A DNA stretch of 64,000 nt. It comes from a virus. The stretch spans positions 1 through 64,000 of the IMG/VR virus record IMGVR_UViG_3300020420_001038, one strand, 5' to 3'. Under the pieces are notes generated by a model. It saw only the letters and a list, made by a program, of their open reading frames with translations. It did not search any database and had not been told where the DNA came from. The translations under genes and the position numbers were made by a program. Below, piece by piece: positions 8,376 to 63,862 of the stretch; the stretch's first letter is position 1; the number at the start of each line of letters is the position of its first letter.

Positions 8376-8595
8376 ATTTAAATCCAAACAAAGTTAGGTC
8401 TTCTGGTGTTTTGAATTCTAACACTAAATGGCCATTGCCATGTTTTATTCCTCGCAAATTTATATTTTGTTCTTCTAGCCATCCAAAAAATTTTCTTGGC
8501 CATTCTTCTTCCATCCAAACTGCAATACCATCTTGTGCGATGATAAGTGGCGCATTAATTTCAATAGTTGTCTTACCATACTGAGCCATAATCAA
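8353..8595 (-). CDS. Hypothetical protein
   Basis: 80-aa ORF overlapping both neighbours. Confidence 0.55.
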   Translation of the reverse strand: MIMAQYGKTTIEINAPLIIAQDGIAVWMEEEWPRKFFGWLEEQNINLRGIKHGNGHLVLEFKTPEDLTLFGFKYDEKKIF

Positions 8596-9076
8596 CCTGT
8601 TCGCACTGTCGAGAAATATCTTTTACAAAGTAAGCACATACTGGTTTAGGACCCTTTGTCAAAGGCACTGCGAGTAGTTGTCCAGACTTAATTTTCGGGA
8701 AGTACCATTTCACTTCTGTGTAGATATCTACAACATCTATAGGATAGAAATCCGGTTTAGAACTGCTTAAAGGATTGAAAGTAAAAGCGTCAAATCCTCT
8801 ATCATTTAAACTTGTTATTGGAAGCACATGCATTTCTGGCTGTCCTTGTTCTCCAATTAACATTTTCCAATCTAATGGCATTTTAATTTTGTGTTTTCCT
8901 ATTTCAAGCACTGCCGCCGGGGCGTTGAAACTTTCTAAGAATATTAATGGTATGTAGAAAAAATCTGGCTCTTCTGGATTAGTGTTATCTAAAACTGCAA
9001 AACGCAATTTTTCATCTACGTATTCTGGAATTCTTTCCAAAGTATAGGTCTGGTCATCAAGAGTTAGTATTTTCAT
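8573..9076 (-). CDS. Hypothetical all-beta protein (possible degenerate Hint-like fold)
   Basis: 167-aa ORF coupled to uvsW; the fold guess rests on beta-strand pattern only. Confidence 0.6.
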   Translation of the reverse strand: MKILTLDDQTYTLERIPEYVDEKLRFAVLDNTNPEEPDFFYIPLIFLESFNAPAAVLEIGKHKIKMPLDWKMLIGEQGQPEMHVLPITSLNDRGFDAFTFNPLSSSKPDFYPIDVVDIYTEVKWYFPKIKSGQLLAVPLTKGPKPVCAYFVKDISRQCEQVDYGSVW

Positions 9077-10520
9077 AATCTACTTTCTCTATATTATACG
9101 GATAATTTGCCTCTTTGTAAAACTTTTTTCTTTGGGTAAGATGTCTTTTCGCAAATTTGCAACTGCTGGTAATATCCCAAATTTGTACATTGTCTTTATC
9201 TTCTGCCTTACGTATGCCTCTTCCTATGCTTTGAATTACTCTTACAAAAGACTTGCCAGGTTCAATAAGAACAAGGTTGAATATCCTAGGAATATTAATA
9301 CCAACAGAAGCCACTCCATATGTGGCAATAATGATTTTACTTTTTGATGTAGACACTTCATCGTAGTGTTCTTTCCTTTCTAATGTTTTTGTAGATCCTG
9401 ATATAAAGACAGAATCTTTTAATTTTTTTTCTAATATTTCGCCTGCAGATATTCTGTCGACTAAAATTAATGTGTTGCCAGATGTTGATATGTGTTCAAT
9501 AGTTTGAGCAATCCAAGACATTCTGTTGCTATCCGTAGTTAGCCATTTCAATTCTTCTTGATAGTTTTTAAACTCCACTGTGTCTAAGGTCTGCAAAACA
9601 TTGACATGACAGTTTGCTAATACTCCTTTATCCTGTAATTCTTTTGCTGGAATTTTATGAGTTACTTCGCCCAGTGAAACTTTAATCCCCATGTATTCAT
9701 ATTCTTCTTTGGGTATGGTACCTGTAAGTCCCCAACGTATTTGACAATGTGCGAGAGGACCGGTTAACAATCTTTTCAACACATCTGCTTTCGCCATGTG
9801 TACTTCGTCGACTATAATAGTGTTTATACCACTGCAGAATTCTTTAAATTCTGTTGAGTGTTCGTTTTTTGCTTTTTTCTCTAACACGTTTAAACTTTGC
9901 CAAGTAGCAATCGTGTTATATCTTCCTACTTCCTTTCGGTCACCGTAATAAACACCTGTATCTAATTCACAAGCAACGAAGTCTTCTTCAGTTTGTGTTA
10001 CTAGACTTTTGTTTGGCACTATTGTTAATGTTCTACCGTAAGGCTCGACTAATCTACACAACGATGCTGTGATAATAGTTTTTCCGGCACCGGTTGCAAT
10101 TTCCTGTATGCTTTGTGTTTCTTCTAGAAATTTATTAATAGTTTTTACTTGATAATCTCTCAATTCTATAGGTTGTCCAGCACAAGGATGATTTTCCGGC
10201 CATTTAATATCCGACAAATAATCTTTGTCTATCTTTTTAAATTCAACATCAAAGTTTGGTCTTTGGTCATCGAGATCAACATAAACACCGCCGTCTTCAA
10301 GAATTGGCAGTATCTTTTCAACGAGATGAAGATAAGTTGAGCCACCTAATCCAAAGAATGCAATCTTACCGTCCCATCTTCCTAGTTTAACTGATGGTAA
10401 ATGATATGCGTATGGAACTTGATATTTAAATTTTTGATGTAGACGTTGTCTCCATTTCAAGTCTAAATTTTCAAATTTGACATTTACCTGATCTTTTATT
10501 ACAAGTTTGCAACTGCTCAT
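9057..10520 (-). CDS. uvsW: SF2 DNA helicase UvsW
   Basis: LRDYQ, ATGAGKT, VDEVH, GLTGT and QSIGRGIR motifs. Confidence 0.88.
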   Translation of the reverse strand: MSSCKLVIKDQVNVKFENLDLKWRQRLHQKFKYQVPYAYHLPSVKLGRWDGKIAFFGLGGSTYLHLVEKILPILEDGGVYVDLDDQRPNFDVEFKKIDKDYLSDIKWPENHPCAGQPIELRDYQVKTINKFLEETQSIQEIATGAGKTIITASLCRLVEPYGRTLTIVPNKSLVTQTEEDFVACELDTGVYYGDRKEVGRYNTIATWQSLNVLEKKAKNEHSTEFKEFCSGINTIIVDEVHMAKADVLKRLLTGPLAHCQIRWGLTGTIPKEEYEYMGIKVSLGEVTHKIPAKELQDKGVLANCHVNVLQTLDTVEFKNYQEELKWLTTDSNRMSWIAQTIEHISTSGNTLILVDRISAGEILEKKLKDSVFISGSTKTLERKEHYDEVSTSKSKIIIATYGVASVGINIPRIFNLVLIEPGKSFVRVIQSIGRGIRKAEDKDNVQIWDITSSCKFAKRHLTQRKKFYKEANYPYNIEKVDYENTNS

Positions 10521-47411: not shown

Positions 47412-47840
47412 ATGAAAGATAATATAATTTGTTCGGGTGCGTTGTTTTATTCAACCTCTACCAAACGTTTCTTGTTCCTACAAAGGACAGATAAAAAAAC
47501 ACAAGGCACATGGGGATTGGTAGGCGGACTTGCACGTAGTACGGAATCTGCATTCGAAGGATTAAAAAGGGAAATAGAGGAGGAAGTAGGTGATACTCCA
47601 AAGTTCAAAAAAGTTATTCCGTTAGAGATGTTCACATCCAATGATCAAAAATTTTATTTTCACACATATTTGATAGCAATCGATTCAGAATTCATACCAA
47701 AACTTAACGAGGAACATTCGGGATATTGTTGGACAGCCTTCGAATGCTGGCCAAAAAATCTACATGGTGGATTAAGGAATACACTTAATAATAAAAGTAT
47801 AAAAGGTAAGTTGCAGACTATATTAGATTTGATAGTTTAA
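47412..47840 (+). CDS. NUDIX hydrolase
   Basis: Nudix box GG-x5-E-x7-REIEEEVG and LNEEH. Confidence 0.88.
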   Translation: MKDNIICSGALFYSTSTKRFLFLQRTDKKTQGTWGLVGGLARSTESAFEGLKREIEEEVGDTPKFKKVIPLEMFTSNDQKFYFHTYLIAIDSEFIPKLNEEHSGYCWTAFECWPKNLHGGLRNTLNNKSIKGKLQTILDLIV

Positions 47841-50800
47841 TCGTTTTTAATATATTTTTTACCCGTAAGTTTTTCAATATCTCTAATCATTTCTTCCATG
47901 TTGACCCTTACAGTTTTGCCTGTTTTTGTATTTCTTGAGAAGTATTCCCATTCGCCTTGTTCGTTGTGCGGAGATATCTTAGTAACGTTACCTGCTTCAT
48001 CACGCACAAAAACTTCTGCACTTGATGATTCATCCTTGGCGTAGATGTGTGCGATATTGGCGGTTGTAGATGGATCACTTGCTAATACACCCAGTTCAAC
48101 GTGTCCTGTAACTCTTAAACTGGTGTCATTCAATAACTGTAAACTGTCTGATCTAAATCTACCTGAAATGTTGTTTGATCCATTTTTTAAGAATGCAAAT
48201 TCTAATATACCGTCCTCAGATCCGTCACTTGCATCTAAAATCTTACCTGTAATTTTTGCATAGTTAATTTCTTGATCGTTGTCATTTTCGCCTTTGAATT
48301 TTATCTGTCCTAAGTAGTCAGCATCTGCTGGACTAGAACTATTTCTCTTCAATGATATTACCGGTCCTGCTGTGCTTGAATCTTCTGTTGTGGTAATTGT
48401 TAATGAATCATCTGTTGTTGTATTTGTTATTGTCTGGCTTCCCAATACCGCTACCGCACCTGTTCCTTGAGGGTCAAGAGTGATGTTTGCATTAGAAGCC
48501 GGTGATTGGATCGTATCAGTTAACACACCTGCTGTGAATGTTTTTTGTCCTGAGATTGTTTGATTGTTACTTGTTAAAACAGATAATGAAGTTGATGCAC
48601 CCGCCGGGTTACGTAGCAACTGGACTCTAAATCCATTTACAGTTGTTGATCCACCGCTGGTGCTCGATGCACTTAAAGATACAGTTGAGCCACTTAAAGA
48701 TGCTGTAAATTCTAGTTGGTCAGTTCCTTTAGTTGATACTTGTGGTGCAGTTGTTACATATGCGTCAGTTCCATCTGTGACAACAAATACCTCACTTATC
48801 GATGCGGCGGATTCTGAACTGTTGTTACCGACTACAACATAGTGGGCACCATTGAAAGAATCTGTACTGAACGTATCAACCTCTGTTGCCGAACTTGACA
48901 CAGTGACCTGGCCGATAGTTTTTGTGTTGTCACTGGTTGCATCTGATTCTGAATCACCTAATAGTACTCTATACATTTTGACTGCGGTGTTTGGTTCATT
49001 TCCTGATGCCCTCAGTCTCACAGAACCACTATCTATGTCTGCTGATAAAGATATCAAAGCATTACTTCCTGTGAAAATGTCATTGAACACTGTGATAAAT
49101 GCATCTGTACCGTTGTGTACAACCAAGCATTCTATATTGTTTAATTCTGTTTTTGTTGAATTGTTTGCACTGATGTAATATTTTGCACCTCTGTATGATG
49201 ATGCCGACCATGTATCAAGATTTTCAGTAGCACTGTCTACATCTGTGTTGATAATTGTTGCGGTGTTTCCTGAACTGGACGCTGATGTATTGTCACCAAG
49301 ACCTATTCTGAAAAACTTGACAGAGTTTACGTCTGCTGTACCTGTACCTCTTAATCTGACCGTTGAGCCAGATATGTCTGCATCGAAAGCCACTTGAGTA
49401 TTTGATCCTGACCTTACTATACCACCTGTACTAGTAAAAGCATCTGTGTCGTTGTGTACTAAACTGACTGTCTGTGTAGCAATTTCGTCATTGATTTCAT
49501 CTCTGGTTACCATCTGATAGAATGCACTATCAAAAGATGTTTTGTCAAACGTGTCTACGTTCACTGCTGTTGTAGAAATACTCGTTGCTTCGCCTGTTGT
49601 AGTACCACTTGCTTCAGTTGCCGTTGCCGTTTTGGCAATGTTTACCCAACCCGATGTGTCATATCTTTCATAACTGTCGGTCGAGGTGTTGTAACGTATC
49701 ATACCTGTTGCGTTTAATGACGGTCTCTGTGCTGTTGTGCCTTTTGGAATTGTTAATGCACCCGGTTCTAATTTCAAATTGTTGTGTGTGATATATAAAT
49801 CATCGGATGTTTGCCCGTTTGCCCTGTAAATGTTATTGGCTTCAAAAGACAATCTTGCAAAAAATATTTTTGTGTTTGGATTACAACTTGCTCTTAATCT
49901 TGCTTTGCCGCCGGACACATCTGCTGAAAATGTTGCCAATGTGTTGTTTGCCGAAAGTACAAAACTTTCAGAAATTGTTGCATCTGTGCCTGCACTATTC
50001 ACAGTCATTGTAATTTCTGAGTTTTGATATTCAGATCCCGATTCCATTGTTATGAAATATCTTGCTGTTTTAAATTTGAACACGTCAAAACTGTCTACTG
50101 TTTCAACAGCACTGTCTATGTCTTTTTTGATTCCGTAATGGAAGTTATCAAACTCTCCTAATTTGGTTTTAGTTCCTAAATCCTGTCTGTATAATACTGC
50201 TGTACCTGTTGTGTTTCCTCCAGACAGAGAACTTAATGTTACTGTCTGTCCTGATATTGTGCCTGTAAAACTATGTAACGGTGTACCTCTGCTTGACACC
50301 ATTGCGTAATCATCATGATACACTGTTGTTCCGTCATGTACTAAACTTTTTTCAGATATTTGATAATCTCCTGATGTATCATCTTTGATTAGGATGACAT
50401 ATTTTGCTCCTCGTATATCTGTTTTTGTAAATTGATCTAATGTTGTAGCAGTTGATCCAATGTTTGTAGATGTTGCAATTATTTTTGAGTTTGTGTTTGC
50501 AACAGTTTCGTGATGATCTCCCAATGCTATTCTATAAAATCGTAGGTTTGTATGAGTAGAAGTATTAGTCGCCGCGGATAATTGCACAACATCTCCGGAT
50601 ATTGCGACAGTGAAGTCTACTATTCTCGTTGAGTCTTCGTTGACATTGTATACTGAGATATATGGTGTAGTATCATCATGGATAATTGAAACTTTTAAGT
50701 GTCCAACAAAATTGTTTGTTTGGTCTTCCACTGCAACATCGTATATTGCACCTCTAAATTCTTTGATATCAAATTCATCAACAACTGCTGATGTTGTATC

Positions 50801-51667
50801 TAGTTTGTAATAATTGAATTGTTTTACCGCTGTGTTGTTACCGCCACCTCCGCCACCAGATTCTGCAAATGATAATGCACCCGAACCGTCTGTTTGTAAC
50901 ACTTGTCCGTTACTGCCATCTGCTGTTGGCAATGAGTACGCACCACTTATGGTTACAACTCCTGCTGACGATACTGCAAATTTTTCACTGGCGCCATTGG
51001 CATAGTGACTGGTAGCACTAGGTTTAGTCCCGCCACCTGCATCACCTCCAACACTTACAGTAAAGCCACCGGATGCTGTGCCAAATTTTATTGAACCGTT
51101 GGTGTCAGACATCACCATGCTGTTGTTTGCGTCAGTGCTGTGTATGTATAGAGGTATGTCCGAAGCGGTGTTTATTGTTAATGTGTTGAGAGCAGTGTAA
51201 CTGGCATCCGCGGTTCCTATACCAATGATACCACCCTCACTCATGTCAATTGTAACTGGTGATATTTCAGTACCACCATCGTTGCCTCTGAATATTAGAT
51301 CTTTATCTGATACGTTTGCTTTGACAACAAAATTATCATTGTCGTTTGTTAGGTAACCAAATTGTGTGCCGCCACCTTTTTTAAGTATAATATCACCTCC
51401 AGCCGCATCTAAGAAAATATCGGCTGAATCATTTATATAAAAGTTTGTTGAAGTAACTAGGTTTGTTTCTAGGCCAGTTGATGCCGCTAGTGTTACTGCT
51501 GTGGCCGTTCCTGCCACTTGTAATTCTGTTGAAGGTTCTGAAGTACCAATTCCTACTCGTGAGTTTGTGACATCGAGGTACAGTAGGTTTGTTTCAAATG
51601 CAAGGTCGACGCCATTCCTAGTCAGATTGGACTTTAATACCGACCCTGTTATACGACCTATGGCCAT
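47837..51667 (-). CDS. Large fibre/appendage protein with six internal repeats
   Basis: MAIGRITG N-terminal module, IPKGTTAQRP module, and six roughly 100-aa beta repeats. Confidence 0.75.
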   Translation of the reverse strand: MAIGRITGSVLKSNLTRNGVDLAFETNLLYLDVTNSRVGIGTSEPSTELQVAGTATAVTLAASTGLETNLVTSTNFYINDSADIFLDAAGGDIILKKGGGTQFGYLTNDNDNFVVKANVSDKDLIFRGNDGGTEISPVTIDMSEGGIIGIGTADASYTALNTLTINTASDIPLYIHSTDANNSMVMSDTNGSIKFGTASGGFTVSVGGDAGGGTKPSATSHYANGASEKFAVSSAGVVTISGAYSLPTADGSNGQVLQTDGSGALSFAESGGGGGGNNTAVKQFNYYKLDTTSAVVDEFDIKEFRGAIYDVAVEDQTNNFVGHLKVSIIHDDTTPYISVYNVNEDSTRIVDFTVAISGDVVQLSAATNTSTHTNLRFYRIALGDHHETVANTNSKIIATSTNIGSTATTLDQFTKTDIRGAKYVILIKDDTSGDYQISEKSLVHDGTTVYHDDYAMVSSRGTPLHSFTGTISGQTVTLSSLSGGNTTGTAVLYRQDLGTKTKLGEFDNFHYGIKKDIDSAVETVDSFDVFKFKTARYFITMESGSEYQNSEITMTVNSAGTDATISESFVLSANNTLATFSADVSGGKARLRASCNPNTKIFFARLSFEANNIYRANGQTSDDLYITHNNLKLEPGALTIPKGTTAQRPSLNATGMIRYNTSTDSYERYDTSGWVNIAKTATATEASGTTTGEATSISTTAVNVDTFDKTSFDSAFYQMVTRDEINDEIATQTVSLVHNDTDAFTSTGGIVRSGSNTQVAFDADISGSTVRLRGTGTADVNSVKFFRIGLGDNTSASSSGNTATIINTDVDSATENLDTWSASSYRGAKYYISANNSTKTELNNIECLVVHNGTDAFITVFNDIFTGSNALISLSADIDSGSVRLRASGNEPNTAVKMYRVLLGDSESDATSDNTKTIGQVTVSSSATEVDTFSTDSFNGAHYVVVGNNSSESAASISEVFVVTDGTDAYVTTAPQVSTKGTDQLEFTASLSGSTVSLSASSTSGGSTTVNGFRVQLLRNPAGASTSLSVLTSNNQTISGQKTFTAGVLTDTIQSPASNANITLDPQGTGAVAVLGSQTITNTTTDDSLTITTTEDSSTAGPVISLKRNSSSPADADYLGQIKFKGENDNDQEINYAKITGKILDASDGSEDGILEFAFLKNGSNNISGRFRSDSLQLLNDTSLRVTGHVELGVLASDPSTTANIAHIYAKDESSSAEVFVRDEAGNVTKISPHNEQGEWEYFSRNTKTGKTVRVNMEEMIRDIEKLTGKKYIKND

Positions 51668-51694
51668 ACTTGGGTACTCCTTATAATAATGTTA

Positions 51695-51742
51695 GTACAG
51701 CAATACACCGTACACAGCCTGATATCATTGCCGGCTGACCAC
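51695..51742 (-). ncRNA. Candidate structured 5' leader RNA (two hairpins, possible pseudoknot)
   Basis: CAGCC/GGCUG and GUACGG/CUGUAC stems between TAAATA (51751-51756) and the AAGGAG SD. Confidence 0.4.
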
Positions 51743-51769
51743 AGTAATAGTATTTATCGGCTGTTTGCT

Positions 51770-52006
51770 TTAGGCTCCTATTACAAGGAAATGGCACCAT
51801 CTGGGTGGCAACCATTGCAATAGCCATGCTCTATTCCTGTATAATGGGTATAGGTGTTCCAGACTTATTTGGTCCAAGTTTTTAAATTGTACTCTAAAAT
51901 ATGGATAATCACAAGAAGTGAATATTAGGTCATAATCATCTTGTGTGCCTTTGTACACTCTAATTTGTAGGTGACGATACCTTTTACTCTTGATTAATTT
52001 TTTCAC
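51770..52006 (-). CDS. Small basic hypothetical protein downstream of the riboswitch
   Basis: GTG start at 52006 with GAGGGAG SD; 78 aa. Confidence 0.65.
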   Translation of the reverse strand: MKKLIKSKRYRHLQIRVYKGTQDDYDLIFTSCDYPYFRVQFKNLDQISLEHLYPLYRNRAWLLQWLPPRWCHFLVIGA

Positions 52007-52024
52007 GCACTTCTCCCTCAAAGT

Positions 52025-52066
52025 GCGTTCCTTCGGTTTCCCTACTTCCGTCCTATTGGATGAACG
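52025..52066 (-). ncRNA. Glutamine riboswitch (glnA RNA motif, class I)
   Basis: CGUUCAUCC-AAUA-GGACGGAAGUAGG-GAAA-CCGAAGGAACGC: P1 CGUUC/GAACG, P2 UCC/GGA, AGUA/GAA E-loop and P3 with GAAA tetraloop; TATAAATA 6 nt upstream. Confidence 0.82.
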
Positions 52067-52088
52067 TAAAAATATTTATAAAAGTCAC

Positions 52089-52119
52089 AAAAAAAGGGCG
52101 ACATAAAGCCGCCCTTTTG
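52089..52119 (-). terminator. Rho-independent terminator insulating the riboswitch unit
   Basis: AAAAGGGCGGC-TTTAT-GTCGCCCTTTTTTT. Confidence 0.85.
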
Positions 52120-52143: not shown

Positions 52144-53157
52144 TTAGTTGTTTGTTCTTACAACGCAATTTACCAAACCAATACCTTCGTCGGATTTGTT
52201 TTCTAATGCTCTTCCGATTACGTTAAATGGACTGATACTTTCGCCAGTTGCCGCCGCTCTCGCACATCCTTTGATGCTTGATGTTACAAGTCTTTGACCT
52301 TTTGTTACTGATCCAGTTGTTCTTACTGGTGCTCTTCCTGTCATTGCAACAAATGGATGACTGTCGCCGTTTCCTGCCGCCGCGTTCATCATGTATGCTG
52401 GTTTAGTAGATACCACACCAAATACATTGTCAGATAAATCTGATGTTGTTTCAGTGATTTCTGCTGTACCGCCTACTGTTACTACTGCGCCTTCTCCCAT
52501 AGGAGCGTCTGCTTCAAATCTTTCACCTAAGTCAGCGTAAGAAGCCGAAGTTGCTCTTGCGTGGATTACGTTTGCTCTTATATCCACTAGTGCGTCAATA
52601 TCACCTGGGTTCATACCTCTACCTGCTGTCCAGGCACCGCCTGCATTTCCAAAAGTAGTTGTACCGTCATCAGAGTATGATTCATCCCATACCCAGAAAA
52701 GATCGTTTTCTGTGGCACTTGATGCGTCACCTCTGTTAACTTTCAAACCTGATAATGTTGGCATTCCAGAGTTTGAAGAAACGTTTCTGTTTACTTCGAT
52801 GATGTTGTCTTCAACTGAAAGTGTCGCTGTGTTAATAATTGTTTGTGTACCGTCTACTGTTAGGTTTCCGTGTACTCTTACACCGTCATCTGTTACAGTC
52901 AATTCAGCATTACCGTCTGCTGTAATTATAATTGTACCATTTGTTCCTGTGTCAGTTACTGCTACCGAACTGTTTAATTGTGCGATACTGTTTTGTGATA
53001 GACCCGCTAATGAGTCATCAACATATTTTTTGTTTGCTAACTGCCCGTCTGCTGTTGGAGCCGACGTTGTGTTACCATGAATAGTGTTTGCACTTGCTGA
53101 TATTACTATATCACCAACTGAAATACCATTATGTACTCTAAAGTTACGTGTTGTCAT
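52144..53157 (-). CDS. Fibre protein with C-terminal intramolecular-chaperone-like domain
   Basis: ANKKYVD, LSVEDNII and SYADLGERF...VAMTGRAPV...KGQRLV...IGRALE motifs. Confidence 0.7.
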   Translation of the reverse strand: MTTRNFRVHNGISVGDIVISASANTIHGNTTSAPTADGQLANKKYVDDSLAGLSQNSIAQLNSSVAVTDTGTNGTIIITADGNAELTVTDDGVRVHGNLTVDGTQTIINTATLSVEDNIIEVNRNVSSNSGMPTLSGLKVNRGDASSATENDLFWVWDESYSDDGTTTFGNAGGAWTAGRGMNPGDIDALVDIRANVIHARATSASYADLGERFEADAPMGEGAVVTVGGTAEITETTSDLSDNVFGVVSTKPAYMMNAAAGNGDSHPFVAMTGRAPVRTTGSVTKGQRLVTSSIKGCARAAATGESISPFNVIGRALENKSDEGIGLVNCVVRTNN

Positions 53158-53277: not shown

Positions 53278-54888
53278 TTACGCCGCTAGTGAAGATTGTA
53301 CAGTAGCCGCCGTTGTGCCTCCTGTACTTGTTGCCTGTATGTTCACTGTTCCTGAATCATATACTGCTGTTACTGTCGCCAAGTCTGTTGAACCTGAGTT
53401 AGTAATACCGTAAACAGTTATGAATGCAGTTGTACCGTTGTGTACAACAGTTGCTTTCATGCTTGAGTATTCAGAGTTTGAAGAGTCTTGTAAGACTATA
53501 AACAATTCTGCCGCTCTGTATGTAGATGCATTGAAACTCATAATTGTTGTAGCAGTTGATGTGAAGTTCACTGAACTTGTTTCAGTTCTTGCAACACCAC
53601 CTGATGCTAAAGCAGTATTATCAAAACCAGTTATCGCAAATATTCTTGCACCACTGTGTGGAGCAGAAGTAAATGTAATGTTTGTTCCTGATACTGTGTA
53701 GTTTTCAGTTGGTTCTTGGTATACGTTGTCAATGAAGACAAGTACGTTAGCCACCGCCGCCGGCGCTGAACTGAAGAAACCTGTGAATGTTGTAGTTGAT
53801 CCGTCACCTGTTCCCGATACTTTAGAAATAGTTGGTGTGTCACCTGCTATCGCCAAGTTAACATAAGTTGAACCATCTTGACAGCCTTCGTATTGTCCTG
53901 TCTGTGAGTTGAATCTTATGATACCAGTTGCCGCAGTCGGTCTTGCCGCTGTGTTACCAACCGGAAGTCTAAACGCATCAGTCGAACCTGACATGTCAAG
54001 TTCGTAAACCGGTGAACTAGTGTTGATACCAATTGCATCTGCTGAACCATCTAAAAAGAATTGGTGCGTGTTTGCCGCCGATTCCATTCTGAAGTCAAGA
54101 TCGTTTGCTGATGCTTCATTGAAGACAACTGCTCTTGAGAACGTAGCACCACCTGTGATGTTTGCGTTCAAGTCTGCGTAAGAGTCAATTGTAACGTTAC
54201 CTGCTGTTGTACCATCCTCTGAAGCCGAAACTGCCGCAACAAATTCGTCTGCTGATTCGTCCCAAATGAATACTACGTTTGCATCAGATCCTCTGTTAAA
54301 GAATATACCTTGGTCAAACGTGTTAGCCGCTCCACCTGAGTTATTCTTTGCTAATTGAATTAGCGGATCTTCAATTGTTAATGTTGTTGAGTCAATGGTA
54401 GTTGTTGTACCATTTACAGTCAAGTTTCCTGTGACTGTCAAGTTTGATGTTATACCACCTGAAGTAAATGAAAGTCCACCTGCTCCGATTGTAGCAATCT
54501 CAGATCCTGCCACGTCGAATCTAATTACGTCTTCGTCTGAACTTTCTTCTACTTGGATTTTTGTATCTTCGTCAGCGTCTTGAATTGCTGAACCTGATGC
54601 CAAGTTTTTGTAGGCACCGCCGGCATAACCTTCGATTGTTCCAATCGTTGTGTTATATCTTATATCACCGTTTGCTGGCGATCCCGGTCTCTGTCCTGTT
54701 GTACCTGATGGTAACCTTAGTGAGTCAGTTGCTGAGATGTGTAAGGTAGTAGCCGGTGAAGCCGTTCCAATACCTACTCTGCTGTTACTGACATCCAAGG
54801 CTAATAAATTTGTTTCAAATGTTAAATCAGTACCTGACCTTGCCAAGTTACTGGATAACATCTGTCCTGTTATTCGTCCTATTGCCAT
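53278..54888 (-). CDS. Modular fibre/appendage protein
   Basis: MAIGRITG module, two LP.G.T..RP modules, GDGSTTTF module and one C-terminal repeat domain. Confidence 0.75.
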   Translation of the reverse strand: MAIGRITGQMLSSNLARSGTDLTFETNLLALDVSNSRVGIGTASPATTLHISATDSLRLPSGTTGQRPGSPANGDIRYNTTIGTIEGYAGGAYKNLASGSAIQDADEDTKIQVEESSDEDVIRFDVAGSEIATIGAGGLSFTSGGITSNLTVTGNLTVNGTTTTIDSTTLTIEDPLIQLAKNNSGGAANTFDQGIFFNRGSDANVVFIWDESADEFVAAVSASEDGTTAGNVTIDSYADLNANITGGATFSRAVVFNEASANDLDFRMESAANTHQFFLDGSADAIGINTSSPVYELDMSGSTDAFRLPVGNTAARPTAATGIIRFNSQTGQYEGCQDGSTYVNLAIAGDTPTISKVSGTGDGSTTTFTGFFSSAPAAVANVLVFIDNVYQEPTENYTVSGTNITFTSAPHSGARIFAITGFDNTALASGGVARTETSSVNFTSTATTIMSFNASTYRAAELFIVLQDSSNSEYSSMKATVVHNGTTAFITVYGITNSGSTDLATVTAVYDSGTVNIQATSTGGTTAATVQSSLAA

Positions 54889-63262: not shown

Positions 63263-63679
63263 TTACTCAGATACGATATCTATGTTACCTTTACCTGACG
63301 CAATTGAACCTTGGATGTCAGTTCCTAATGAATAAGGTACTGATCCTGTGGCACCGCCTGCAGTCACGTAGTGTACTGTGTTGTTGAAAAATTTCTCAAC
63401 ATAAGCAACAGTTGAATCGTCTAATGTAATTTGTACACAGAACTGGTTTGATGTGTTCGCAAGTGATCCTGGTGCTACTGCTTTTAATTCGTAAACTGCT
63501 TCTGTAGAATCATCCAAGTGTATTTTGAATAACTTAGATCCTCTTTGTGAAACAATGTACGCAGTAGTTGAATCAACTTTTGCACCACCAGTTGGTCTGT
63601 AAGCCGTCACCGCAATTTTACCTGCTGTTGAGGCACCAAAGTCTGATACAAATCTATCTTTTCTTATTGGTCTTCCCAT
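63263..63679 (-). CDS. Hypothetical virion protein
   Basis: MGRP start, YIVSQRGSKLF, CAGGAG SD, own late promoter and structured leader. Confidence 0.65.
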   Translation of the reverse strand: MGRPIRKDRFVSDFGASTAGKIAVTAYRPTGGAKVDSTTAYIVSQRGSKLFKIHLDDSTEAVYELKAVAPGSLANTSNQFCVQITLDDSTVAYVEKFFNNTVHYVTAGGATGSVPYSLGTDIQGSIASGKGNIDIVSE

Positions 63680-63695
63680 TTTTTTTCTCCTGTTT

Positions 63696-63767
63696 CAGAG
63701 CCTAATGTGAGTTCTACTCACTACGCGGTTTATTCCGCATAAGTCCGCACTTGGTTGTGCGGCTCTG
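63696..63767 (-). ncRNA. Candidate four-way-junction leader RNA
   Basis: Closing stem CAGAGCC/GGCUCUG encloses three hairpins: GCAC/GUGC, UAUGCGG/CCGCGUA and GUGAG/CUCAC. Confidence 0.55.
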
Positions 63768-63862
63768 TTTGACTGTACGTATTTATGATTTTGTGAGATG
63801 TTTAATGTGTTGCTACAAAGGCCGATTCAAAAAAACTACAATGTCGGCCTTGTATGAAATTA

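Follow-up and report, generated by a model that had tools for sequence, protein, structure and literature searches.

This work concerns a predicted glutamine riboswitch and the gene for a 78-amino-acid (78-aa) basic protein that directly follows it on the minus strand of a viral DNA sequence. The sequence, which we call the window, is a 64,000-nucleotide (nt) part of an IMG/VR contig of 86,865 b (IMGVR_UViG_3300020420_001038; CheckV completeness 24%). Read along the minus strand, the order is a terminator, a TATAAATA box, five U and an A, a 47-nt aptamer, a hairpin holding the Shine-Dalgarno (SD) sequence, and a gene that starts with GUG. A first-pass annotation of this DNA had already placed the terminator, box, aptamer, hairpin, SD and GUG, and its coordinates for all of them are correct on the sequence. 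The features are these:

52089..52119, minus strand: terminator of the upstream fibre-like gene, an 11-bp G+C-rich stem (AAAAGGGCGGC/GUCGCCCUUUU) followed by a U run
52073..52080, minus strand: T4-type late promoter box TATAAATA, called from its sequence
52022..52068, minus strand: glutamine-I riboswitch aptamer (RF01739), Infernal score 55.0 bits against a gathering score of 35
52005..52028, minus strand: sequestor hairpin, with 5' arm ACGCACUUU (52020-52028), 3' arm GAAGUGCGU (52005-52013) and loop GAGGGA
52013..52019, minus strand: Shine-Dalgarno sequence GAGGGAG, in the hairpin loop except for its last G
51770..52006, minus strand: gene of the 78-aa basic protein, with GUG start and TAA stop

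The identity of the aptamer rests on a covariance model. The first-pass annotation had recognized the architecture of the glnA motif (glutamine-I) here and had suggested an Infernal scan against the Rfam model as a check. The scan was run and the match to RF01739, far over its gathering score, bears the identification out (E 2.4e-09, model positions 1-53 of 53). A search of the record itself recovers the same match, and the element scores as RF01739, not as RF01704. P1 is formed by CGUUC (52062-52066) with GAACG (52026-52030), P2 by UCC/GGA and P3 by GG/CC. The base that follows P1, C52025, is by its position the linchpin C, corresponding to C60 of the crystallised aptamer. We base this assignment on the construct sequence given in PMC5393176, which ends ...GAAGCAACGCG and has C60 directly after the P1 strand, and on the passage of PMC6212724 on G23-C60, according to which glutamine binding favours this long-range pair and melts a short helix joined to P1.

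The aptamer is also well conserved among its relatives. In 19 distinct leaders of the 78-aa family the aptamer helices have standard pairs in 190 of 190 pair cells. Two aptamer pairs are compensatory in these leaders, and the covariation score is reached by none of 500 shuffles; P1 pair 5 is C-G in 13 leaders and G-C in 6, and one P3 pair is G-C in 17 and C-G in 2. The columns of the core, GGACGGAAGUAG ... GAAG.AACGC, with the linchpin G and the C after P1, are invariant in the leader alignment and match the Rfam consensus. We infer from its sequence that the window aptamer responds to glutamine.

Directly after the aptamer comes what we believe to be its expression platform. The earlier account had an alternative hairpin here that uses the 3' strand of P1, and both the fold and the sequence agree with it. 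The 5' arm is made up of three bases from the end of P1, the linchpin C after them and the tail, and the 3' arm comprises the spacer between SD and start together with the G and U of the start codon (GUG at 52004-52006, with G52006 and U52005 within the stem). The helix, ACGCACUU(U) / (G)AAGUGCGU, has 9 bp when its closing U.G pair is included. It folds at -12.7 kcal/mol (z -4.83; 0 of 200 shuffles equal it) and is present in the minimum-free-energy fold of the whole leader. Without ACGC, which comprises the last P1 bases and the linchpin C, the hairpin weakens from -12.3 to -2.3 kcal/mol. Because ACG and the linchpin C belong to both structures, the ligand-bound aptamer and the sequestor should be mutually exclusive, and in the ON sense. 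Two details of the earlier description need changing. The SD does lie in the hairpin loop but is not itself paired; what the helix covers is the spacer that follows the SD, together with two start-codon bases. The P1 strand is indeed a shared element, and the linchpin C after it, which the annotation did not name, is also decisive.

Related leaders have AGGGAG or AGGAG at the equivalent SD position. The bases after the hairpin in the window are GAAAAAAUU, with no U run. Transcriptional control by an intrinsic terminator was considered and rejected, because the hairpin lacks a following U run, so control in the window would be translational.

The platform is not peculiar to the window. An exact-pattern scan of IMG/VR for the aptamer core found at least 119 loci, and in this wider leader set the register of the platform was set by anchoring on GUG. 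Among the matches listed, 83 of 89 distinct phage platforms have a helix of the form GCAC-N / N-GUG-Y between the SD and the start. The first inner pair in the 69 listed platforms with a single register is U-A in 49, C-G in 17, U.G in 3 and C-A in none (Fisher p 1.9e-13). Since the U-A and C-G types both occur inside three different downstream open reading frame (ORF) families, this pair change arose repeatedly. The six platforms without the GCAC/GUG helix are those of a 45-aa family with a weak DUF4278 match, and in these a CUUUAC/GUAAAG pairing overlaps the first SD bases.

That a late promoter lies ahead of the aptamer, as had been proposed, agrees with three kinds of evidence. ATAAATA occurs at 18 sites in the window. 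By area, 1.1 of these should fall in the 120 nt ahead of an ATG gene start on the same strand; 12 are found there, and they include the sites ahead of the sheath, tube and fibre genes. The riboswitch's own ATAAATA site is missed by this count because its gene starts with GUG. The record carries a gp55-type late sigma factor outside the window (G000:C1:80459-81439(-); phrog_12791, E 3.1e-84; phrog_234, E 3e-23). Finally, 74 of the 103 distinct phage leaders among the matches listed have a TAAATA that ends 3-9 nt ahead of P1, with a mode of 6 nt. T4 late transcription starts about 6 nt after TATAAATA. By analogy with this spacing the transcript would start at A52067, one base ahead of P1, and the RNA would have no 5' extension able to compete with the aptamer. 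We infer that the cassette is expressed late. The sigma factor itself (8460-9440 in locus L159) has 326 aa, compared with 286 and 181 positions in the PHROG profiles it matches, and its gene adjoins SbcC/SbcD-like (gp46/47-type) genes.

The 78-aa ORF, judged by its relatives and by how it varies among them, is a real conserved marine phage gene under purifying selection. It had been called an orphan, and this no longer holds: a word-indexed protein search finds 14 clusters with 76-84 residues and 54-81% identity, and the gene was found at 28 viral loci (12 with the window protein as query and 28 with a diverse alignment, the contigs being partly shared). The clusters draw on marine metagenomes, Tara among them, and the annotation of their members is absent or reads 'hypothetical protein'. 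A profile search of 1.84 billion representatives gave 10 matches only, of 42-119 residues and none with a name. Eight ungapped orthologues show 486, 272 and 1050 differences at codon positions 1, 2 and 3, and their synonymous codon differences (750) exceed the non-synonymous ones (576). The protein has an isoelectric point (pI) of 9.7 and a charge of +6.7. A TTG at 52021, which would give an 83-aa ORF, was rejected as the start; it lies within the aptamer tail without an SD, and the relatives start at the GUG/AUG position. A 48-aa ORF at 51681-51827 overlaps the end of the 78-aa gene and the next promoter.

The gene and the aptamer travel together. The annotation had suggested a homolog search for co-conservation of the two, and this was run. 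DNA ahead of the gene is available for 27 loci, and in 24 of them RF01739 is found over its cut-off (49.4-58.7 bits) immediately before the gene; the association persists in loci where the protein identity is only 41-52%. Given this recurrence and an aptamer score far over the curated cut-off, the arrangement is beyond chance. Locus L009 (3272-3536) has two cassettes in tandem: immediately behind the 78-aa gene stands another RF01739 aptamer (53.9 bits), with a CTAAATA box ahead of it and, after it, a 64-aa ORF from a family with a G-T-S-G-Y sequence. A scan of genome contigs found the gene in three contigs of one metagenome-assembled genome (MAG) only, Rickettsiales bacterium MED657 (L162-L164). 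One of the MED657 contigs and the IMG/VR viral contig L011 are both 60,409 b. The probable explanation is that phage contigs were binned into a low-GC MAG, and not that there is a cellular homologue.

We believe the best reading of the leader is a translational ON switch, and that terminator, T4-type promoter, glutamine-I riboswitch and 78-aa gene probably form a self-contained late-gene cassette. The riboswitch would begin at the transcript start or one base after it. When glutamine is absent, the ACG of the P1 3' strand, the linchpin C and the tail ACUUU would pair with the stretch between SD and start, including the G and U of GUG, and this pairing would block initiation. When glutamine is bound, P1 and the long-range G-C linchpin pair would form and take ACGC from the hairpin; the five remaining A/U-rich pairs would be too weak, the start region would open and translation would follow. 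The 78-aa protein would be made late, and only at high host glutamine, which would act as a signal of nitrogen sufficiency. The ON direction is what the shared bases suggest. The further idea in the first-pass annotation, a nutrient checkpoint on assembly or lysis, is speculative.

Several observations weigh against this reading. Three of the 27 loci (L153, L155 and L158) have the gene and no aptamer; in L153 (2440-2743) the gene is immediately preceded by a TATAAATA box, and L155 and L158 have neither element. Since the box in L153 stands directly ahead of the SD and start with no aptamer, the gene there would be late but unregulated, which would make it a natural experimental control. As an exact octamer, TATAAATA shows no enrichment in the window, with 3 observed and 6.1 expected. 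In the 78-aa family alone the sequestor helix is paired in 83% of cells and 267 of 500 shuffles reach its covariation score, the changes being one U-A to C-G and six G-C to G-U. Some rows of this family alignment are out of register, which is part of the covariation shortfall. Because there is no excess over shuffles within the family, the covariation case rests on the wider leader set. In subgroups the helix overlaps P1 by just one base or stops before the start codon. The SD is unpaired, and it could remain reachable in relatives with 14-20-nt loops. Four RNA-library runs were also compared, as assembled contigs that are uninformative on starts, strand and level. One contig (X16 record 3) spans 51837-52090 with one mismatch and so extends beyond the predicted start; this may be read-through or library DNA. 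Many other RNA-library contigs match the aptamer alone and then diverge into other leaders.

The cassette is flanked by fibre-like structural genes, and their features matter for what the riboswitch controls:

52144..53157, minus strand: fibre-like structural gene, 337 aa, upstream of the cassette, with PHROG virion structural protein matches
51751..51757, minus strand: ATAAATA late box of the 1276-aa fibre gene, 90 nt ahead of its ATG at 51667
47837..51667, minus strand: fibre gene, 1276 aa, downstream of the cassette, with its own ATAAATA box

The separate ATAAATA box makes the 1276-aa fibre gene independent of the riboswitch transcript, so riboswitch control is most likely limited to the 78-aa gene. 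On the other side, the terminator of the upstream gene folds at -17.7 kcal/mol (z -4.45; 0 of 200 shuffles are as good). It is not in the output of a simple terminator scan, and most window-like loci have a terminator-like hairpin with a T run at the equivalent position. The 337-aa protein has a weak match to the Peptidase_G2 intramolecular chaperone (E 0.0034, under the cut-off), and a homologue of its gene lies upstream of the cassette in L001, L004, L006 and L010. Downstream of the cassette the L004-L007 group has convergent NUDIX and gp15-like genes, and the neighbours in L008 and L009 differ.

There are two other accounts of the leader to weigh. The riboswitch may be genuine and work in another mode or in the opposite sense, by mRNA decay (e.g. 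RNase E access at the 5' end) or by translational repression. In the predicted transcript the aptamer comes first, in a position where structure can influence decay, and the SD is unpaired in the hairpin; both would suit this account. The glutamine riboswitch is also mentioned in papers on cyanobacterial RNase E. However, the bases common to aptamer and hairpin make the two folds exclusive in the ON sense, no alternative pairing was seen that hides the start only when P1 is formed, and the characterised member of the class is described in a passage of PMC6212724 as activated by nitrogen supply. We think this account very unlikely. It could also be argued that the cassette chiefly controls the downstream fibre gene via read-through and that the 78-aa ORF is a leader peptide or a passenger, since there is no evident terminator between the ORF stop (51770) and the fibre start (51667). 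But an ATAAATA box and an SD of its own precede the fibre gene, the roughly 100 nt between the genes make translational coupling unlikely, and the ORF ends its unit in L004-L007 and L012, where it faces the convergent NUDIX and gp15-like genes. Purifying selection on the protein and its confident AlphaFold2 model also speak against a mere leader peptide. We regard control of the fibre gene as highly improbable, and we continue with the translational ON switch for the 78-aa gene.

What the protein is has to be approached through its predicted fold. Pfam, NCBIfam and PHROG give no family match for any of the 28 family members, a sequence profile search of the PDB gave a single chance row (E 1.5), and the ESM Atlas held no usable match for the 78-aa protein. 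With tblastn and blastn no match to the protein or to a 701-nt region was found in 50,697 phage records; an 85-nt query at E up to 10 found the aptamers of the phages Melnitz and S-CREM1, plus chance rows only. Structure prediction of the ORF, another suggestion of the first-pass annotation, gave a confident AlphaFold2 model from a 28-row alignment (predicted local distance difference test, pLDDT, 93.5; predicted template modelling score, pTM, 0.78), with four antiparallel strands, a long helix and a short helix. A first model from 15 rows had a pLDDT of 70.9, and its comparison with PDB and BFVD returned nothing at E <=0.001, the best being AcrF1 at E 0.12. For the second model the VIA neighbours are AP2 and PARP WGR domains (Z 5.5-5.1) and an integrase arm-binding domain (Z 4.8). 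The best Z of 5.5, with a root-mean-square deviation of 2.7-3.3 A over 64-66 residues, is weak and under the tool's noise range of about 8. Foldseek neighbours are Pur-alpha, MRP1/2 and PC4-like proteins at E 0.12-1, and the best of these (E 0.12) is weak too. A homodimer prediction (score 0.02, mark 0.42) speaks neither for nor against a dimer.

Our guess at the function, made with low confidence, is a small nucleic-acid-binding or protein-inhibiting factor. A small nucleic-acid-binding protein, whether a late regulator or a DNA/RNA-associated factor, would fit the charge and pI given above and the model, in which helices follow a four-stranded sheet. The structural neighbours that score best, though all of them weakly, bind nucleic acids, and Arg and Lys on the strands are conserved: K2 and R16 do not vary at all and R38 hardly does. 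However, the structural scores reflect a common arrangement (Z <8; no Foldseek E <=0.001), the inhibitors PliI, PEIP, PmrD, PsiB and AcrF1 score similarly, and the PDB-profile, Pfam, NCBIfam and PHROG searches give no link at the level of sequence. The small basic nucleic-acid binder is therefore a lead and not a finding, and we consider it possible but somewhat unlikely. By analogy with the logic of gifB, the protein might instead be an analogue of the glutamine synthetase-inactivating factors IF7 and IF17 or some other brake on nitrogen assimilation. Cyanobacterial inactivating factors are small and basic, and the 78-aa protein is small and basic as well. The riboswitch class and the ON logic would be shared with gifB as PMC6212724 describes it in part, and another phage family behind the same aptamer has a weak, sub-cut-off DUF4278 match. 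But DUF4278 (PF14105) matches 0 of the 28 members at E up to 1, and the predicted fold is a beta sheet plus helices. The host may not be a cyanobacterium either: the terminase is nearest to those of jumbo phages of proteobacteria, and passages of PMC12379486 and PMC9004378 place RF01739 in SAR86 and in phages of SAR11 and OM43 as well. An inactivating-factor analogue seems to us distinctly unlikely. More doubtful again is an accessory or assembly factor of the adjacent fibre-like protein. The 337-aa homologue is directly upstream in L001, L004, L006 and L010 despite differing downstream genes, and assembly factors often follow fibre genes. Against this, the two genes are set apart by a terminator and a separate promoter, such neighbours as were looked at in L008 and L009 (of the same subfamily) and in the more distant L150-L158 are different and include tRNA genes and small ORFs, and the fibre-like protein has its own weak intramolecular-chaperone match.

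The source of the window is, on its gene content, a marine jumbo-type myovirus with T4-like late transcription. The terminase of the record is closest (55%) to that of the 287-kb Pseudomonas phage PA5oct and close to those of other jumbo myoviruses too, and the window genes include a 1142-aa sheath, a UvsX-like and a gp32-like gene. No tRNA genes were found in the window. The 1276-aa fibre protein and a 536-aa fibre-like protein (53278-54888, minus strand) have nearly identical N-termini (MAIGRITG..SNL.R.G.DL.FETNLL.LDV.NSRVGIGT), and the former has internal repeats that a single 305-aa protein of L006 matches four times. The Rfam freshwater-2 RNA (RF02980) has a full-length match at 63677-63762 on the minus strand, which scores 75.1 bits where the cut-off is 49.9. 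An AGGAG SD and an AUG stand at its end, and an ATAAATA box at 63786 lies 107 nt ahead of the gene start. This is, as far as the match goes, a second cis-regulatory RNA under a late promoter in the same phage.

The viral aptamer and platform are followed by more than one kind of protein. Among the matches listed (L014-L132) there are at least five unrelated small-protein families behind them:

at least 42 loci: 28-38 aa, with an F/Y-x-x-W-C motif (the 'WC' family)
at least 28 loci: 64-65 aa, with G-T-S-G-Y
at least 24 loci: about 50 aa, beginning MNYRDFE
at least 10 loci: 76-81 aa, the family of the 78-aa protein
at least 8 loci: 45 aa, with YRG repeats and a DUF4278 match below the cut-off (E 9.8e-4, 19.9 bits against 25.3)

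It is important to separate what is known from what is added here. That glnA RNAs bind glutamine and that gifB is an ON switch is in print, in the passages of PMC2864571 and PMC6212724 that treat them. Glutamine riboswitches are mentioned in T4-like cyanophages (passages of PMC9964418 and PMC9602691) and in phages of SAR11 and OM43 (PMC9004378, in part). In the literature searched, neither the 78-aa family nor its coupling to a late promoter was found described, the supplementary tables of Klaehn 2018 (S1/S2) and Weinberg 2010 lying outside the scope of that search. Phage glutamine riboswitches are already known, and the 78-aa protein family is new.

The gifB (IF17) leader of Synechocystis, a type-1 glutamine riboswitch, is the obvious comparison. 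As described in passages of PMC6212724, its expression goes up after a nitrogen upshift, the C next to P1 and the bases following it are modelled to pair with the ribosome-binding site, and DUF4278, the IF17 domain, usually follows RF01739 in cyanobacteria. Both leaders have an RF01739 aptamer, a proposed translational ON logic and a small basic protein under control. Unlike gifB, the window element belongs to a phage and would open a gp55-type late transcript, and its helix covers the spacer and start codon where the published gifB model involves the SD. Its product also lacks DUF4278 (0 of 28) and has another predicted fold.

The Methylophilales phage Melnitz (PMC9004378) likewise has RF01739 in a marine T4-like myovirus (52.8 bits), with the same platform tail and helix, GCACU ... 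AGUGU, before an AUG. It differs in that the TAAATA box is absent and the regulated protein family is another one. PMC9004378, in the part on the riboswitch, assigns it control of the transfer-messenger RNA (tmRNA) gene. In the Melnitz record (MZ577097; L160) the aptamer, at 1200-1248, comes after the tmRNA (775-1192 by Rfam) and directly before an unannotated 32-aa ORF at 1271-1369, which belongs to the 'WC' family. The record annotates a 33-aa coding sequence on the opposite strand in place of this ORF. Synechococcus phage S-CREM1 (OP535465; PMC9964418, in part) is similar in having a glnA-type leader before a 48-aa hypothetical protein. It is unlike the window in that its aptamer has a large insertion and is under the Rfam cut-off, with another anti-SD arrangement. 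Its ORF has a YRG-type sequence, which we take to be typical of DUF4278. The Glutamine-II / Downstream-peptide motif (RF01704) has a related glutamine-binding architecture before ORFs of 17-100 aa, as a passage of PMC2864571 has it. It is a separate Rfam family, restricted to marine picocyanobacteria according to a passage of PMC6212724.

The value of the locus is limited by the fact that the class is published in phages and the cassette is common in marine viral contigs, the loci of the core scan being that numerous. What it adds is a new regulated family with a confident predicted fold, a jumbo-phage setting and a particularly legible platform, the sequestor taking in three P1 bases together with the linchpin C. 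The whole circuit can be read from the sequence and could be rebuilt as a reporter of about 90 nt. Phage riboswitches are rare, and the sensing of host nutrient state by lytic phages is largely unexplored; the target of the 78-aa protein would reveal what the phage does only when nitrogen is plentiful. At least five unrelated small basic families behind one module (late promoter, glutamine riboswitch and GCAC/GUG platform) might amount to a phage 'nitrogen-status regulon', and in this jumbo-type phage the effector, regularly placed behind a fibre-like gene, might tie particle completion or host shut-down to nitrogen supply. This is speculative, and we would call it unlikely as matters stand. 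If it is true, the virus would read host glutamine late in infection and switch on effectors for nitrogen metabolism, nucleic acids or the timing of assembly and lysis.

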